Below are positions 11,333 through 53,972 of a DNA stretch of 64,000 nucleotides, in pieces (position 1 is the stretch's first letter; the number at the start of each line of letters is the position of its first letter). A model generated the notes under the pieces. It was not told where the DNA came from, did no database searches, and saw only the letters and a list, made by a program, of their open reading frames with translations. The position numbers and the translations under genes are program-made. Location: the IMG/VR virus record IMGVR_UViG_3300043803_002450, one strand, 5' to 3'. The DNA comes from an uncultured virus (IMG/VR IMGVR_UViG_3300043803_002450) (lineage: Duplodnaviria > Heunggongvirae > Uroviricota > Caudoviricetes).

Positions 11333-11800
11333 TCATTGGTCTTGATCGCGACCGCTAAATGTTTTGAGCTCGTCAGCAAGCAAGGCAATAACCCTTCCGT
11401 TCATTCGCCGTTGCTTCATCAACTTTTGCAGCACCGCCATACTTTCCCGCGTAACGCTCTCTTCTTTTTTTGCCGCCTTCATGTCAAAAGGTAAGAAATA
11501 GTCGGGCTTGATAGATGCTTTCTTTCCGCCCATCATCGTGGCCGCCATTGATCCAAGCTTGGCAACGGCCACGCTTTGAATGTTGTATTTCGTAGTATCG
11601 TGTCTATCTAAGTACTTCAGCGCTGTCCGCAAGTCCTCCATCTTTTGCTTGCCAAAATTCTTAGCAGACCAGCGGTCGTCCTTGAAGTCGGACGAACAAA
11701 GCCGAAAATACAGCTCATTCCAATTCGTCATGGAAGCCAGGAATTTCCTGGCTTGTGCTTCTAATCGTTCTGCGATTGAGGAGAATTCCTCTTCGGAGCT
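11333..11800 (-). CDS. Tail assembly chaperone C-terminal (GT) part, reached by -1 frameshift
   Basis: -1 frame is open from the A AAA AAA site (11806-11800) through SSEEEFSSIAERLEAQARKFLAS into the listed ORF 11333-11731. Confidence 0.8.
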   Translation of the reverse strand, partial: SSEEEFSSIAERLEAQARKFLASMTNWNELYFRLCSSDFKDDRWSAKNFGKQKMEDLRTALKYLDRHDTTKYNIQSVAVAKLGSMAATMMGGKKASIKPDYFLPFDMKAAKKEESVTRESMAVLQKLMKQRRMNGRVIALLADELKTFSGRDQDQ

Positions 11801-12315
11801 TTTTTTGCTTCTCCGGCCCCCTTCATCTCTGACTCTTGCTCAGTCGCGATAAATTCAACCACTTTTGCAATGATTCGACGAGGCAAGGCGTTAGTGTCTT
11901 CGGCGCTCCAGTCGGCAATATCTCGCCATTCTCCATCGATCAGGCCCTGACCCCTTGAACGAATAAATGCCGTGACCATCCGAGCGTTTGTGGCTTCCAC
12001 AGAAGAGCCGCTGGTAAGCATGCTCAGAGTTTCTTCGGTAAATTCCGAAAGAAGCTCCGCCTCCGACAATGTGCTTCCGCCCCCTTGGAGGAGGGCAAAT
12101 GCCTCGTCAAGGCCGACGCCTTTGGCTGCCGCAACTTTCTTGGCTAGTTGCACAGCTCGAATAGTGGCCTGACTTTGCAGCTTGCCGATCTCTTCCTGTT
12201 CAATCGCTTCCGCAACAAGCCAGCCGCCAAACTTCTTCAAACGCATGCTGGGAAGAAGCTCAAAGAAACCTTCTTCTTTCGTTTCAAGCAGAAAGCTGTA
12301 TTTGCTCATGATCAA
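11761..12315 (-). CDS. Tail assembly chaperone (G-like)
   Basis: Between major tail gene and TMP; ends shortly after GCA AAA AAA slippery site. Confidence 0.8.
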   Translation of the reverse strand: MIMSKYSFLLETKEEGFFELLPSMRLKKFGGWLVAEAIEQEEIGKLQSQATIRAVQLAKKVAAAKGVGLDEAFALLQGGGSTLSEAELLSEFTEETLSMLTSGSSVEATNARMVTAFIRSRGQGLIDGEWRDIADWSAEDTNALPRRIIAKVVEFIATEQESEMKGAGEAKKAPKRNSPQSQND

Positions 12316-19570: not shown

Positions 19571-19824
19571 TTTCCCATTGAATCTTCCATGCCCTCTTCT
19601 TCCTCTTCCGCGCCTCCAAGCTCTTTCATGAAAGCCATGTAGTACTCGTCGCCCATGTCCTTTTTAGGCTTGCGAGACATTCCGGCCTCAGACAAGGCAA
19701 TCGCGAGGGCTTGCTGAGGGCTCTTTACAGGGTCGCCACTACTGCTTTTGAGCTTACCAGCCTTGAATTCCCTCATGACAGTGCGAATTTTTGCCTGCCT
19801 TTCTTTCTTGGTCATTTTGCTCAA
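19564..19824 (-). CDS. Small basic head-module protein (DUF6496-like)
   Basis: KIRTVMREFKAGKLKSSSG..VKSPQQALAIALSEAG motif; acidic tail ending MGKD. Confidence 0.75.
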   Translation of the reverse strand: MSKMTKKERQAKIRTVMREFKAGKLKSSSGDPVKSPQQALAIALSEAGMSRKPKKDMGDEYYMAFMKELGGAEEEEEGMEDSMGKD

Positions 19825-29615: not shown

Positions 29616-29685
29616 GGGCTCCTCCAGGAATCGAACCTGGCATTCCAGGCTATCTACCTGACGTGTAAGCCTACACTAAGGAGCA
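29616..29685 (-). tRNA. Non-canonical tRNA-like gene (central triplet GAT, nominally Ile); possibly pseudo-tRNA
   Basis: Cloverleaf TGCTCCT-TA-GTGT-AGGCTT-ACAC-G-TCAGG-TAGATAG-CCTGG-AATG-CCAGG-TTCGATT-CCTGG-AGGAGCC-C. Confidence 0.6.
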
Positions 29686-37550: not shown

Positions 37551-38561
37551 TCAAGCAGCCAAGGCCAGAGCGTGAGCCTTGGTGATGGTGGCAGCACCAT
37601 TGCCCCACCACTGGCTTTCCAGGCGCCTGCGGGCAGCCTCAATGTCATCGCCGCGACCAGCCTCGTGCGTCACCCACTCAGTGATGGCGTTGTAGGCGCC
37701 CCAATAAGTGCCCTGCACGCCCTTGATGTCGAAGCCAATGCCGTCGCCTGCAAATTTGTTGGCCACGCTGTCCCACTGGGGCAGATCGCTCAGGGTCTTT
37801 GGGCGGGCAGTGGTTTTGTCGCCTCGCTTAGCGTTGACAGTGCCAGCCAGTTGATCAGCAAAAACGGCTTCGCAATAGGCTTTGAACTGGGCGCTGGTGC
37901 AGGGCTTGGCGGCCATTGCCTCGAGCTCTTCGAGGCCTGCAGTGAACTGCTGGCGCTTGATATCGATGATCTCCGGCAGGCGGTCGATCAGGGCGTTGCA
38001 GTTGAGCGTGTGGCGGATGCTGATGCGCTTACCTTTGCTGGTGGCCCCAGTGTGCTCAGCATGCCCGAGAGCGGCGCTGAGCGTGTTGGCACAAACCACT
38101 CTCACGGGAGTGAAGAGGGTTTGGAAGGCGATGGAACCGTCGTGGCTGGTGGCGCCAACTATATATTGGCAAATCTCGTCGCCCTTGAGCACCTCGCCTT
38201 CTGCGCCATTGATCTTGGCCGTGAAGGTCACTTTACGACCCTCGTCGAGCACGCACACTGCGCTCATTTCTGCATCTTCATGCAGGGCCTCGGCAAGCTT
38301 GATGAGCTGTTCGTTCTGAACAATGGTGTAGGAGTCCTTCTGCACACTCAGCACTTTCCCATTGTCTCCCCTTGTGATGGCTTGATAGCCCTCGATGGGC
38401 TGGCCAGTGGGGTCGAGAATGGGAGTGGAAAGCACTTGCCAATCAGCCTCGCCAATGGCGAAAGCTTCGCGAGCAGGGAGAGTGCCGTCAATAACGTGAC
38501 CAAGACCGTGCCAAGCAGCCTGGCCGTGGAAGAAAGCGCCGGAAGAGAATTGATGAGCCAT
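37551..38561 (-). CDS. DUF932-family phage/plasmid protein
   Basis: AWHGLG, YTIVQN, SHDGS, TPVRVVCANTL, IRHT, GTYWGAYNAITEW motifs. Confidence 0.9.
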   Translation of the reverse strand: MAHQFSSGAFFHGQAAWHGLGHVIDGTLPAREAFAIGEADWQVLSTPILDPTGQPIEGYQAITRGDNGKVLSVQKDSYTIVQNEQLIKLAEALHEDAEMSAVCVLDEGRKVTFTAKINGAEGEVLKGDEICQYIVGATSHDGSIAFQTLFTPVRVVCANTLSAALGHAEHTGATSKGKRISIRHTLNCNALIDRLPEIIDIKRQQFTAGLEELEAMAAKPCTSAQFKAYCEAVFADQLAGTVNAKRGDKTTARPKTLSDLPQWDSVANKFAGDGIGFDIKGVQGTYWGAYNAITEWVTHEAGRGDDIEAARRRLESQWWGNGAATITKAHALALAA

Positions 38562-48773: not shown

Positions 48774-50714
48774 CTAGAAAAATTCTTCTTCTTCGGCATC
48801 CTCGACGGAAAAATCTGGTTCTTGATAGTCCCATGAATGGTAAGCTCTAGTCTTTTCGCCATTGGGACCATTAACAAAACTGCTAGTAATTAAGCCTTGC
48901 CTGCGTGCAATCTCAAGCATCTTGCCCGTTGAAGACGTGTCGAAGCTTCCGCACAGGCTTGCCACTTGATGCTTATTGAACCGCTCCGTCTTGCGCATGT
49001 TGACCACATTCACCACTTGATTCAGCTCCTCGAGAGAGCCCCCGAGAGGCCCTGCATAGTGCCACCCATAATTGAGGCTGTCTCGTTTTAGGACATGCTT
49101 GCCCGTCAGGCCACTACGGCTTTTGAGCCATTCCAAAGTGAATTCATTGGGGTCGAAGCTCTCTGAGCGCGTTAGCTTGACCACTTCACTGACGTTGTCT
49201 ACAAAGCTGGTCGAATCTCGCAGCCCCCCGCTTTTGTTCAAATGGTGCAAGATGACAATGGAGCAGCGGTAGGTGTTGGCCATGTCGCGCAAGCCATAGA
49301 TGGCATCACCAGCAGAGCTCTTTGCAAGATCCACGTTCATGCCCGCAAGGCAAGCAGTGAGACTGTCGATCATCACCAGTGAAGGACGTTCTTTTCTGAT
49401 GTAGTCTTCAAGCTGCTTCATGTGGGCAAAGCGCCAGGTTTCCCAGAAGCTGATGTCGCCGGGTTCAAGCCCAGCATCTTGGTAGCCAATCACTGAAAGC
49501 TTCTCTGCCGTGTCAGTCAGAGGCTCATCGGCGCTGATCAGCAGGCATCTTCCCTTCATGCACCTCCTGCCGCTCCATGGCGTACCAAGGCCAACATGCA
49601 GGGCCCAGTTGTAAAGCAATGTCGTTTTGCCGGTTCCTCCTGCTGCAGCAAGAAGCGTCACGCTACCCAAGGGCACAATGCCGGCAATCAGCCAGTCGCG
49701 AGCTTTGTCTGAACTGGCGATGGTGAGGGCATCAATGCTTTCAATTTCTTCTTTTCCATGCACTCGTGTTTTGGCCTCATCAATGATCTTCTCTATGTTT
49801 TGCTGCGTCATCTTGACGCCACGCTGCTCTAGCCAATAGTTAGTCTCATAATTGATGCGAGCCTCGTTGGCATAGAGGCCCACAAATCCTTCAATGGTAG
49901 AAATGATTTCTTCATACGAAGGCTTCCCATCGGTGTTTTTATGGCGGCTTTTTGAAACAATGGAAGAAAGCAAGTCATCTTTCGTGGCGCCTTCTTCGAT
50001 GTAGTCTCCAATGTCATAGCCATTGCCTGACGGCAGATTGTCCCATTCCCAGGAGCGAGGATCGGCATAAAGCCACTGTGCTCCAGGATTATCATTGGCC
50101 ACTTCTGCCATAAAGGCCACGCCCTGCTCGTCTCTGTCGGGACACAGAACAAGCTGACGCCCTTTGAACAAGCTCGAATAGTCACCATTGGTGCGGTACT
50201 GCTTGGAACCACCAAGAAAGGTGACGCAGGGCAGTTCGATTGCCCACATGGATTCGCAAGTGAGCTCGCCTTCGACGATAAAAATAGGCAGGCCGGTGGC
50301 TTCGCTTTTGGCAATGGCTTCGTGATATTTATAGGGCAGAATCTTTGTCTTTACTTCCTGAAGCTGGGCTTTATGGCCGCTCGAGGATTTTTCAATCGTG
50401 GGAAAATCTTGCCAAATCCTTTTGCTACCGCTTGTGTCGTCACGATGAACGACGACAATTTCGGAGCCTCCTCTGTCCTGGTATGAAAAGTCGTAACGGC
50501 CAGGACTGCGTGGTGGCTTCTCCCATCGTGTCAGCGGCGCAAGAGCATCTCGGATGTCGGCGCGGTGGGCAGGAGAGGGGTCGTGCCAGCAGTTGTAGCC
50601 TCCAGTATTCTTGTTGACCGTAAAATCGTTGCCACCACACGCCGGGCAAAGAAATTTCCCCTTTTCGTTGCTGGGTTCGAGCTGGTCAAGGTGGTCAAGG
50701 ATGGAGAACGCCAT
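48774..50714 (-). CDS. Primase-helicase (Zn ribbon + TOPRIM + RecA-like AAA_25 helicase)
   Basis: CPACGG, IVEGE, CPDRDEQG, GYDIGD, AAGGTGKT, VMIDSL, ILHH motifs. Confidence 0.9.
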   Translation of the reverse strand: MAFSILDHLDQLEPSNEKGKFLCPACGGNDFTVNKNTGGYNCWHDPSPAHRADIRDALAPLTRWEKPPRSPGRYDFSYQDRGGSEIVVVHRDDTSGSKRIWQDFPTIEKSSSGHKAQLQEVKTKILPYKYHEAIAKSEATGLPIFIVEGELTCESMWAIELPCVTFLGGSKQYRTNGDYSSLFKGRQLVLCPDRDEQGVAFMAEVANDNPGAQWLYADPRSWEWDNLPSGNGYDIGDYIEEGATKDDLLSSIVSKSRHKNTDGKPSYEEIISTIEGFVGLYANEARINYETNYWLEQRGVKMTQQNIEKIIDEAKTRVHGKEEIESIDALTIASSDKARDWLIAGIVPLGSVTLLAAAGGTGKTTLLYNWALHVGLGTPWSGRRCMKGRCLLISADEPLTDTAEKLSVIGYQDAGLEPGDISFWETWRFAHMKQLEDYIRKERPSLVMIDSLTACLAGMNVDLAKSSAGDAIYGLRDMANTYRCSIVILHHLNKSGGLRDSTSFVDNVSEVVKLTRSESFDPNEFTLEWLKSRSGLTGKHVLKRDSLNYGWHYAGPLGGSLEELNQVVNVVNMRKTERFNKHQVASLCGSFDTSSTGKMLEIARRQGLITSSFVNGPNGEKTRAYHSWDYQEPDFSVEDAEEEEFF

Positions 50715-51120: not shown

Positions 51121-51556
51121 AAGCTCTAATTGACACTCTGAATAAAGCTCGCATTGAAGCGGGAGATGAAGCAGAAGTGTTTCTTTGTTTCGAAGAAACT
51201 GCCCTAGAGGAAGGGTACGACGAAAATTGCACAGAAGCAATTAGCGACGTGCGCCTTTTAGAAGACTGGCCGCTTCCCGGCAAAAGTCTGTGCTTTTCCG
51301 AAGGAGAGAAAGCCCAGAAGGTGGTCATCTTTTATGACAACCATTACAAGCTTGACTCTGCAAAAGGGGTGGCATGAATCTTCAAGAATTCACGGCAAGG
51401 CTTGATGAGCTTGATGATCACATTGCTGCCGTGCTGCAAATGTTCGAAGATGACACTGGCGTAAAGGTCGGGAGTCTCTTGGTCACGATCAATCAAGATG
51501 GTGATTACGAAATGACCACCGGCCTCGACTTTCCCGCATCAAAAGATGCAGAATGA
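51111..51556 (+). other. Two short hypothetical genes (51111-51377, 51374-51556)
   Basis: Coupled ORFs in the recombination operon. Confidence 0.55.
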
Positions 51557-52530
51557 AAAACTCTCTTCTCTTTTACGACCCCAGCCATTTCCAAGACATG
51601 ACTCTTCCCGTCACTGCCGTCAATGAAGCCATGCTAACTGAACGAATGCTCGGCCACTTCTCCCCTCTTGAGATTTCCTCAGAAGCCTTCACCAAGGCTT
51701 ACGAGCTGCCTATTGGCGATCACGTGGAGAAGAACTATAAAGGCCTCTCCTATCTGTCATGGCCCTTTGCCTTCCGCTACTTGAAGGAGCAATTTCCTGC
51801 TGTTTATGTGGCCTTTGAAGAAAAGGAAGCTGGCTGGCCGGTGTTCGGTCAAGAGGGCTGCTGGCTGCTTCGCCCCTATCTCACCGATGGCATCAAGCGC
51901 ACTCCTGCGCTGGTGTTTCCCATCATGGACAACAAGCACAGCGCCGTAAAAGCTCTTGATGCTCGTCAAGTGAGCGACAACATCCAGCGGGCTTCCGTGA
52001 AATGCATCGCCACCTTCACTGGTCTTGGTCTCAAGCTCTACTCAGGCGAAGACATTCCTAAAGCAGACGATGAAAAAGAGCAATCTCCCCGGCTCCCGCT
52101 TCAACAGGAAACTGCGAAGCCGTCTGCGCGGCGAAGCACGAAACAAGAGACGCCTGTGCCTGCTGATGATGCAATTGGAGGAGCTGAAACTGCTCCCTCC
52201 GGTGGAGGAGCCGAGTTCGATGGCAAAGCAGCGCTTCTTAGCTTTGGCGAAGCCAATCCCCTCGGCTACCCAGACCGCGCCACAAGCATGAAAGCTGTCA
52301 AGGCTGGGCTTGAAGCTCTTGGGCTTACCAAGGGAGAAGATGTGAAAGACAGGGAAATGTTTGCCAATGTGGTGACAACCATGGTCACATCATGGACCAA
52401 GGCCCAGGGTATCAAGATCACCAAGACTGACATGACCAAGGAGATTGATTGCCTGCGAGCTATTTGCTCGGAAGGGTCAGTTGACAATGCCATTAAGGGG
52501 GTGTCTGTGTTCGTGGAAGGAAAAAAGTAG
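51553..52530 (+). CDS. Single-strand annealing protein (Sak3 / DUF1071-like)
   Basis: GLSYLSW..A, FPIMDNKH, IQRA.VKCIA..GLGLKLYSGEDIP; lies before exonuclease and SSB-like genes. Confidence 0.85.
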   Translation: MKNSLLFYDPSHFQDMTLPVTAVNEAMLTERMLGHFSPLEISSEAFTKAYELPIGDHVEKNYKGLSYLSWPFAFRYLKEQFPAVYVAFEEKEAGWPVFGQEGCWLLRPYLTDGIKRTPALVFPIMDNKHSAVKALDARQVSDNIQRASVKCIATFTGLGLKLYSGEDIPKADDEKEQSPRLPLQQETAKPSARRSTKQETPVPADDAIGGAETAPSGGGAEFDGKAALLSFGEANPLGYPDRATSMKAVKAGLEALGLTKGEDVKDREMFANVVTTMVTSWTKAQGIKITKTDMTKEIDCLRAICSEGSVDNAIKGVSVFVEGKK

Positions 52531-52614
52531 ATAGGGCAGCAGCCGCGCTTGCGAGAAGTTTTGCAGGCGCGGTTATTGCCGACAAGCTCAATACCCCTCT
52601 CGCGGAAGACTTCA

Positions 52615-52851
52615 GTGATCTCTTTAGTCAGCCTCAAGCATTGCCCTGAATGTGGCTCTTTGTGGCACGACAAGCCAATTCCAGAGAAGAGCCGTTGGCT
52701 ATTTGGAAATAGCGAATGGTTCTCGAGAGTGATTGCCATCAGCTCTTGGCGGCAGGATCGTTGTATTGCCTATCAGTGCCCTGACTGTCACACTTGTTGG
52801 GACAGGGACACTGGCGCCATCATTGACTCTTACGATTTGACCGTGCGATAG
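52615..52851 (+). CDS. Zn-ribbon protein
   Basis: CPECG...CPDC; GTG start at 52615. Confidence 0.6.
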   Translation: MISLVSLKHCPECGSLWHDKPIPEKSRWLFGNSEWFSRVIAISSWRQDRCIAYQCPDCHTCWDRDTGAIIDSYDLTVR

Positions 52852-53648
52852 TGGCTTGTTACGACCTCGCCGTGTCTAAAGCTATGCCCTCGTTCGAGCG
52901 CTTCGAGCCCAGGCGCATCAGTCTCAACGGGAAAAGACACTACATCTGCGAAAGCTTCCCGAATGTCCCAGAGGGCGTGCTCCTTCCTTCTGTCACTACC
53001 GTGCTGTCTTCCATGGCACCGGTGGCGAAGATCATGGCTCTCATGAACTGGCGGAAGCGAGTGGGAGATGACGAGGCCAATAGGCGCACAAGGCTTGCCG
53101 CCAATCGCGGCACCTGGCTCCATGGCGTCTTGGAGGATTGGTTCAATGGGGAAGACATCGAGCACCACCTGGAAAAAGCAAAGGAATGGGCCGTCTACTT
53201 CCAGACCATAGATCCATTCTTGGAGCACATCGCGGAGCCGGTCTTAGTTGAAAGCGCAGTGGCTTGGTTCGACCTCGACAGGGAAATTGGCTATAGCGGC
53301 ACGCTTGATATGGTCGCAAAGATGGCTGATGGTCGTACTGCCTTGATCGATTGGAAGACAAGCTTCAAGGAAAAGCCAGATTACCAACTGGCCGACTACA
53401 AACGACAGCTCGGGGCCTATTCAATGGCAGCAGAACAAATGTACGACACCTCTATTGACGAGGCCTGGTGCGTCATTTCCTGCTTCGACCCAGAGGACCA
53501 GAAAAGCAAGAGCATTCTTCAGTTGGTCCACCTTGATGGTTTTGAGCTGGTCAGCCAGCAGCGCATCATGGCCGATACGGTAAAGAGATATTTCAATGCG
53601 TGGTACCCCGGCGGCAAGGCATTTGCGCTCACGATGGACAGGGGGTGA
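52851..53648 (+). CDS. PD-(D/E)xK exonuclease
   Basis: PSVTTVL, RGTWLH, YSGTLD, LIDWKTS, QLGAY motifs. Confidence 0.85.
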   Translation: MACYDLAVSKAMPSFERFEPRRISLNGKRHYICESFPNVPEGVLLPSVTTVLSSMAPVAKIMALMNWRKRVGDDEANRRTRLAANRGTWLHGVLEDWFNGEDIEHHLEKAKEWAVYFQTIDPFLEHIAEPVLVESAVAWFDLDREIGYSGTLDMVAKMADGRTALIDWKTSFKEKPDYQLADYKRQLGAYSMAAEQMYDTSIDEAWCVISCFDPEDQKSKSILQLVHLDGFELVSQQRIMADTVKRYFNAWYPGGKAFALTMDRG

Positions 53649-53720
53649 CAGGGGGCTTCGAAGGGGGTAAGATTGGCAGGCCCACAAAGGGCTGTACCAT
53701 CACTCCCCTGGAGAAACACC

Positions 53721-53972
53721 ATGGCTGGAAAGCCTCCTATCACCGCTGCAATCGACCTCACCCCTGACGTGCTCAACGCACTGAAGGCTGCTGGCCCCAA
53801 TGATCGCGGCAACTACTCTCTCGACCTTGCCGTATGGGAGAACACCCGTCGCACTTCTGACCGCGCTCCCGGCTATACGGGCAGCGTCAAGGTGAAGGGC
53901 GCAGATCGCGACGCTCCCAAAGGCTACGCTTCTGTGTGGACCAATATGGGCGGTTCTGACGACCTGTTCTGA
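53721..53972 (+). CDS. Putative small single-stranded DNA-binding protein
   Basis: Follows SSAP and exonuclease; AVW...APGYTGSV; acidic DDLF C-terminus. Confidence 0.6.
   Translation: MAGKPPITAAIDLTPDVLNALKAAGPNDRGNYSLDLAVWENTRRTSDRAPGYTGSVKVKGADRDAPKGYASVWTNMGGSDDLF

Follow-up and report, generated by a model that had tools for sequence, protein, structure and literature searches.

Does a phage single-strand annealing protein gain a second C-terminus through ribosomal frameshifting, and if so, what would the added residues bind? The question arises at a Sak3 gene whose end reads GGA AAA AAG TAG, in a stretch of 64,000 nt from an uncultured virus (IMG/VR IMGVR_UViG_3300043803_002450); this whole stretch is called the window below. 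By its sequence, the window looks like most of the genome of an S-CBS4-like cyanophage, and its Pfam matches include portal, terminase, tape measure, ribonucleotide reductase, integrase, thyX, and dCTP deaminase genes. Its closest cultured relative is Synechococcus phage S-CBS4, from which we infer a host in the Synechococcus/Cyanobium group; S-CBS4 gp079 and the Sak3 protein of the window are 55.8% identical across their whole length. Four contigs in non-cyanobacterial MAGs also carry relatives and are probably mis-binned phage.

The annealase gene and its neighborhood

The ORF at 51553-52530 matched PF06378 (E = 1.7e-18; 67.1 bits, with a gathering score of 22.3), the family given as Sak3/DUF1071 in the available part of PMC8093625, and phrog_8492 (E = 5e-43). 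These matches agree with the Sak3-like label that the first-pass annotation of this DNA had assigned. The protein has a Sak3 domain (residues ~48-180), a low-confidence linker (~160-220), and a helical C-terminal domain (~221-325). AlphaFold2 gave pLDDT values of 80-91 for residues 221-325 and low values for the rest, and a Foldseek search with this low-confidence model returned SAK3-labelled viral models at E values of 0.003 and weaker.

Features of the locus are collected in Table 1. The probable GTG start of the Zn-ribbon ORF was placed by comparison with relatives, which have ATGs close to the corresponding position. The small protein that follows the exonuclease is conserved and viral, and is possibly a non-canonical SSB; it had no Pfam or PHROG match, and its nearest named clusters in the ESM Atlas were DUF736 (0.90, 23% of members) and Enc34 ssDNA-binding (0.88). 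A close strain, represented by two sequencing runs, has 148 different letters at 52836-52845, between the Zn-ribbon and exonuclease genes. A single tRNA-Ile(GAT) was called in the window (29616-29684, - strand), and there was no tRNA-Lys call.

Table 1. Positions of the annealase gene, the putative recoding elements, and neighboring genes in the window
Feature	Position	Strand	Basis or remark
Divergent primase/helicase-like gene	48774..50714	-	AAA_25; phrog_239, E = 3e-32
Short isoform (325 aa, 0 frame) of the Sak3/DUF1071 single-strand annealing protein	51553..52530	+	PF06378, phrog_8492
Putative slippery heptamer A_AAA_AAG (Lys-Lys), immediately 5' of the stop	52521..52527	+	Read in the 0 frame
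DnaX(tau)-like motif in the tail, 19 aa: helix, F-x-G, hydrophobic pair	52524..52580	+	DnaX profile
Predicted 40-aa extension in the -1 frame, giving a 365-aa long isoform	52527..52649	+	Stop at 52647-52649
TAG stop of the 0 frame, lying within the 7-nt spacer (52528-52534)	52528..52530	+	Sequence
Putative 3' stimulatory hairpin, 20 pairs, one 1x1 mismatch, 4-nt loop	52535..52580	+	Folding, shuffles, covariation
Zn-ribbon ORF, 0 frame, probable GTG start within the distal tail	52615..52851	+	ORF calls; Pfam zinc-ribbon matches all below cut-off
PD-(D/E)XK exonuclease, likely annealase partner	52851..53648	+	PF12705; phrog_298, E = 5e-47
Small protein, acidic C-terminus, possibly SSB (lead)	53715..53972	+	ESM Atlas neighbors

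A candidate frameshift signal at the gene end

The first-pass annotation had proposed that ribosomes shift to the -1 frame at the last codons of the Sak3 gene. The elements that it named are present: the in-frame A_AAA_AAG, a hairpin beginning 7 nt past it, which folds with 20 pairs, and a -1 frame encoding the same 40 residues. AAAAAAG as such is common in the window (19 copies, both strands counted). Of the nine window sites at which a heptamer close to the end of an ORF goes with an open -1 frame, the annealase site has the most stable downstream structure (-33.5; the next is at -22.8). Its hairpin has an energy of -33.8 kcal/mol (z = -4.3), and none of 200 shuffles was equally stable. In the window, the 0 frame past the TAG stays open for 106 codons and runs into the Zn-ribbon ORF, so readthrough needed testing as a rival; this openness is not conserved in relatives.

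Conservation among relatives

A first comparison set consisted of 200 loci, S-CBS4, and the window (202 together). Removal of 12 incomplete members left 190, which reduced to 116 distinct gene ends. All but one of these (115 of 116) have an in-frame heptamer at the last or next-to-last codon plus a related tail of 22-43 aa in the -1 frame; the exception, L123, has an unrelated 3' end. The A_AAA_AAG form named in the first pass holds for the window and for 53 of the 115 ends, whereas the other 62 use G_GGA_AAG. A second set of 85 loci, less one incomplete locus and 48 duplicates, yielded 36 further ends, 35 of which keep the signal. Thirty-three of them are typical, and two (L264 and L286) have the heptamer seven codons before the stop; both have lost the adjacent stop and retained heptamer, stem, and tail. 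The tail is absent from L300, a Sak3 gene whose product is 31% identical. Overall, 150 of 152 distinct ends keep A_AAA_AAG or G_GGA_AAG plus the tail, although the sequences are related and these counts are not independent. S-CBS4 carries the signal and the tail as well. A quick tree built from 112 proteins requires 10 changes of heptamer type, two of them forced by well-supported branches.

Codon usage points in the same direction for heptamer and tail. Within gene bodies, none of 50 Lys-Lys and none of 229 Gly-Lys dipeptides is written as the heptamer, which on this evidence is not a by-product of the encoded protein sequence. Over the first 22 codons, the -1 frame is open in all 115 ends; the 0 frame is stopped in 62 and the +1 frame in 96. 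Codon-position entropies in the core of the -1 frame (0.85, 0.69, and 1.39 bits) follow a coding pattern, with the third position the most variable. When the motif is located by its fixed distance from the heptamer, its glycine is invariant in 115 of 115 ends and uses four codons. The stop codon of the tail overlaps an ATG (as ATGA) in 45 of 115 ends, and in four this ATG is the exonuclease start. The overlap suggests that the tail counts as a coding unit; its translation may also couple that of the downstream gene. In many G_GGA_AAG relatives (L006, L008, L015, L036, L130, and others), a hydrophobic ORF of 27-46 aa begins at the ATGA overlap. The best 120 homologues are all at most 325 aa, and a search among 8,000 candidates found no in-frame tail on longer proteins, which is weak evidence.

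Two covarying hairpin registers

The hairpin occurs in two main registers, found in 54 and 40 of the 115 gene ends. Register and heptamer go together: 47 of the 54 ends in one register have G_GGA_AAG, and 39 of the 40 in the other have A_AAA_AAG. Modal spacers are 7 and 8 nt across the two classes; by a crude MFE rule, the spacer is 5-9 nt in 54 of 115 ends, and a few clades fold weakly. In the register of the window (34 distinct sequences), 7 of 15 pairs vary on both sides, and the covariation score was 0.335, compared with 0.178 when shuffled; none of 500 shuffles reached it. In the second register (43 distinct sequences), 8 of 12 pairs covary, positions are 98.1% paired, and the score lay above all 500 shuffles. 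Both registers also scored far above slid-register controls, but shuffles and slid registers alike ignore relatedness, and the sequences, having been pre-sorted by predicted fold, lean toward structure. One peptide is encoded over both covarying registers.

One relative (L119:2930-3050) has a seven-codon insertion between heptamer and motif and lacks a stable stem. A close protein, P0126, was called from its own ATG and may represent a step toward a separate peptide.

Probable programmed frameshifting and its alternatives

Conserved heptamer and tail, two covarying registers, and stop loss in L264 and L286 make programmed -1 frameshifting at the Sak3 gene end very likely. The frameshift proposed in the first pass came through all the comparative tests made, those of the heptamer, the -1 frame, the codon-position pattern, and stem covariation. 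In the sections of PMC5009743 that were available, A_AAA_AAG as well as G_GGA_AAG is described as highly shift-prone in E. coli, with a usual spacer of 5-9 nt. To judge from its sequence features, the signal is of the dnaX/IS type and matches those defining features of that type that can be read from sequence, except for the optional upstream Shine-Dalgarno sequence, the position of which is not conserved here; 26 of 115 ends have no GGAG, GAGG, or AGGA within 22 nt.

It is very improbable that no frameshift occurs and that the locus is explained instead by a hairpin acting in termination or stability, by readthrough of the TAG into the Zn-ribbon ORF, or by a small gene of its own for the tail. 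Readthrough would suit the 106 open codons beyond the TAG in the window, but fails because the 0 frame is not conserved, closing within 22 codons in 62 of 115 ends. A separate small gene would fit the output of gene callers, which report some tails as ORFs of their own, and 68 of 115 ends do have an ATG, GTG, or TTG in the open -1 frame before the glycine. This option fails because such starts lie at scattered places in those 68 ends and are missing ahead of the motif in the window and in the other 47. Reinitiation at the stop is contradicted by L264 and L286, which keep heptamer, stem, and tail although the stop has moved. No terminator was called at the hairpin on either strand, and the sense strand folds more stably than the antisense strand in 82 of 92 ends examined, and we rejected a terminator on these grounds. 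The G_GGA_AAG run is presumably too short for polymerase slippage.

We give an equally small chance to a frameshift that is mainly regulatory, in which -1 ribosomes would melt the hairpin, reach the next start, and set the ratio of annealase to downstream product, with the peptide of minor importance: the ATGA overlaps, including those at the exonuclease start, would fit, but the peptide is retained over different stem registers with synonymous variation, the motif glycine is kept in all ends by four codons, and the downstream gene varies.

Other candidate frameshift sites in the window

Further sites were noted on the - strand. At 11806, an A-run heptamer lies 14 codons before the stop of ORF 12315-11764, the gene upstream of that for the tape measure. 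The -1 frame there has 157 codons and ends at 11333; this is probably the usual tail chaperone G/GT frameshift. At 19576, between the portal and head protease genes, G_GGA_AAG stands three codons before a stop. A stem (-24 kcal/mol) follows after about 4 nt, and the 120-codon -1 frame to 19214 has no early ATG, making this site a candidate for a further frameshift. At 38360, GGGAAAG lies at the overlapping start of a 269-codon ORF that has a GTG at codon 2; the fold is weak, and the site is likely not a frameshift and probably a mere overlapping ORF start.

The tail resembles a conserved island of cyanobacterial DnaX

The first-pass annotation had likened the tail to a C-terminal motif of cyanobacterial DnaX (tau). 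A tail HMM (22 rows, 29 positions) searched against 1.84 billion representative proteins returned no DnaX at E <= 0.001. It had 22 matches, and the eight examined were five tails called as short ORFs and three repeats. NCBIfam and PDB sequence searches with the tail gave nothing meaningful and no DnaX, and the ESM Atlas gave leads below 0.9 only. Such database-wide searches were too blunt, so we compared the tail directly with the C-terminal parts of DnaX.

The C-terminal parts of 116 full-length cyanobacterial-type DnaX proteins (part of them named, none from a named picocyanobacterium) were aligned without the tail. They contain one conserved island, C-terminal to the domain V-like fold. The island was chosen with the first-pass suggestion known, but the profile was built from DnaX alone (73 distinct 19-mers from 113 proteins). 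Scanned over the 69,801 six-frame positions of the window, this profile put the tail at rank 1, with 18.2 bits, and the next position scored 8.8. None of ~535,000 background positions reached 15 bits, and none of 200,000 shuffles of the window 19-mer reached its score. Across the 115 other loci, with L123 taken as a miss, the tail came out on top in 106, and it was the top site in S-CBS4; one clade, the L095 group, scored near zero. The DnaX motifs themselves score 28-43 bits. In the reverse test, a tail profile selected the island in 110 of 113 DnaX proteins, and hhalign gave 83.7% (E = 8e-6). The proposed likeness is therefore real at the level of sequence and reciprocal by profile tests both ways. 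Tail and island differ in that the tail mostly has A for the first F of FF and has E after the glycine in 9% of cases versus 73% in DnaX. It is likely that the first ~19 residues of the tail copy the DnaX island and bind the host partner of tau.

An acidic DFSDLF segment, which the first pass had offered as a second functional element, did not hold up: a D.LF-like word occurs in 4 of 115 tails, and the segment straddles the probable GTG start of the Zn-ribbon ORF. Many cyanobacterial DnaX proteins (P0151-P0266) finish with an acidic DDDIPF-type motif, with a spacer between the island and this end, which we take to resemble the C-terminus of bacterial SSB. Three plasmid DnaX proteins that we examined end before the island motif and are also without the acidic end. 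Picocyanobacterial DnaX was not found among the best 25 of 176 plasmid matches or in viral contigs.

Pol III alpha as the possible partner

In E. coli, helix H7 of tau (N622-D636) binds the tail of Pol III alpha (passages of PMC11470591, PMC4703070, and PMC11869525), and tau without its last 25 residues no longer binds alpha (passages of PMC11470591 and PMC4703070). The cyanobacterial DnaX island shares with this helix a position after domain V and an L-x-x-F-F-x-[AG]-E pattern. By score, the link is thin: the cyanobacterial profile gave 2.5 bits on E. coli H7 (rank 2 within tau) and 8.9 bits on a gammaproteobacterial DnaX end (rank 1); the tail profile selected neither.

We also modeled the 42-residue tail with residues 1060-1355 of DnaE in ESMFold2, using a 66-row alignment for the tail and, without an alignment, the DnaE of Synechocystis as a stand-in host. 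The predicted complex scored 0.58, compared with 0.00 for the best control. At least 80% of contacts were in agreement across runs, and the pLDDT of the partner was at least 62. The mark applied to these scores was reached by 116 of 157 solved pairs and by 2 of 215 mismatched pairs. Scores of 0.60 or below held only 18 of the 157 solved pairs but both passing mismatches; 0.58 lies in this shared band and thus lends weak support. It may reflect likeness to solved tau-alpha structures. Taking frameshift, motif, and partner jointly, we put slightly better than even chances on a minor long isoform that binds host Pol III alpha (DnaE).

A real frameshift with a different partner is unlikely. The motif would then bind another partner of tau (DnaB helicase or another holoenzyme subunit), the phage exonuclease, or the primase/helicase. 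Annealase C-terminal domains do bind exonuclease and SSB (excerpts of PMC11611040), scores tie the motif only weakly to E. coli H7, and we found no description of the partner of the cyanobacterial tau motif in the literature searched. DnaE is favored over these by two features that match the E. coli alpha-binding helix, a location behind the domain V-like fold and an L-x-x-F-F-x-[AG]-E pattern, together with a predicted DnaE complex that beat its controls.

A competitor role for the tail is less likely still. The tail would bind DnaE and displace tau, uncoupling host replisomes and freeing the Pol III core. An inhibitor would not need fusion to an annealase, the tail has no start of its own at a conserved position, and a stand-alone tail family was not seen beyond short mis-called ORFs; motif and complex prediction are the same for this role, and a weakened tau-alpha contact harms E. 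coli (passages of PMC11470591).

A tentative mechanism and its replication context

In the mechanism we propose for DnaE binding, the hairpin would make ribosomes pause while two tRNA-Lys occupy A_AAA_AAG, and a fraction would slip by -1 and bypass the TAG, producing a 365-aa isoform alongside the 325-aa isoform. With its first ~19 residues, the tail would copy the island conserved close to the cyanobacterial DnaX C-terminus and bind the host partner of that island. This partner would be DnaE, contacted at its C-terminal tail in the way known for helix H7 of E. coli tau. Sak3 is expected to function as an oligomer, so frameshifting would set a few polymerase hooks per ring or filament. Host Pol III would then be delivered to 3' ends just paired by exonuclease and annealase, priming recombination-dependent replication. 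We hold the complete reading tentatively and at somewhat less than even odds: recoding would capture the host replicase by giving a controlled share of annealase subunits a tau-mimic peptide, which would dock on DnaE at the tau site and hand Pol III to annealed 3' ends. If true, replication would be coupled to recombination with neither a polymerase nor a clamp loader from the phage, and the conserved island of cyanobacterial DnaX would be identified as the alpha-binding site.

Gene content bears on the last step. In five of five relatives that are 95-100% complete, no family A, B, or C polymerase, no dnaX, and no canonical SSB was found. None of these is annotated among the 105 features of S-CBS4, and none was detected among the window ORFs scanned with Pfam (42 + 10 ORFs). 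The phage group seems to be without a replicative polymerase of its own, although a divergent one may be present, and a need for a polymerase hook is plausible. Annealases are required for replication of staphylococcal phages (available part of PMC5499656), and Red-beta gets to the replication fork via host SSB (excerpts of PMC11611040).

Comparison with known systems

Neither frameshifting in a phage annealase gene nor a phage tau mimic was found reported in the open-licence literature, as covered by titles and abstract starts, with supplementary tables outside the scope. The accessible text of PMC8093625 does not contain 'frameshift', that of PMC10885494 contains neither 'anneal' nor 'recombina', and that of PMC5913663 agrees; the available parts of PMC2896510 and of a bioRxiv dnaX-intein preprint held nothing further on either subject. 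Programmed frameshifting, known from structural genes of phages, would here extend to an enzyme of recombination, and the family has a cultured member, S-CBS4, in which the tail is unannotated. If the tail binds DnaE, it would be a route of viral host-replicase capture that we did not find described in the literature searched, and would suggest, in a form open to testing, how cyanophages without a polymerase replicate. The tail would further provide a small natural peptide directed at the contact between tau and alpha. For the choice of annealases in cyanobacterial genome editing, cloning the annotated gene alone would drop the long isoform.

The Sak3/DUF1071 annealase ORF35 of lactococcal phage p2 shares the PF06378 domain and has an exonuclease and a possible SSB nearby; the S-CBS4-like clade adds a helical C-terminal domain of ~100 aa and the putative recoded tail. 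In lambda, Red-beta's C-terminal domain binds Exo and host SSB (excerpts of PMC11611040), likewise a case of an annealase C-terminus reaching the host fork. Red-beta does so with an in-frame folded domain and SSB as partner, whereas here a frameshift-dependent linear motif would act, with a polymerase as the proposed partner. Near-end -1 shifts are also shared with the phage G/GT tail chaperones and with capsid and tail extensions (T3, T7 gene 10, Lactobacillus A2, and Listeria A118/A500), which place a C-terminal module on a minority of subunits; G_GGA_AAG is listed among shift-prone heptamers (sections of PMC5009743). Those extensions belong to virion or assembly proteins and are Ig-like or chaperone modules, whereas here a DNA-metabolism enzyme would receive a host-like motif of 22-43 aa.

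As to the tau side, H7 of E. coli is an amphipathic helix ending in F-F-D-A-E-L after domain V, and the cyanobacterial island agrees with it in place and pattern, but profile scores between H7 and the phage tail are not significant. Cyanobacterial DnaX continues past the island with a spacer and an acidic DDIPF-type end, which the tail does not have, and the AAA+ clamp-loader domains of the DnaX family are absent from the Sak3 protein. The signal itself resembles that of E. coli dnaX, in which A_AAA_AAG and a 3' stem yield tau and gamma isoforms that differ by the C-terminal part of tau (sections of PMC5009743). An upstream Shine-Dalgarno stimulator is found in dnaX and in about 56% of IS elements, and no conserved one is found in the annealase family. 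In dnaX, the -1 shift removes the alpha-binding part; here the logic would be reversed, with the shift adding a tau-like motif and the gene being that of a phage annealase.
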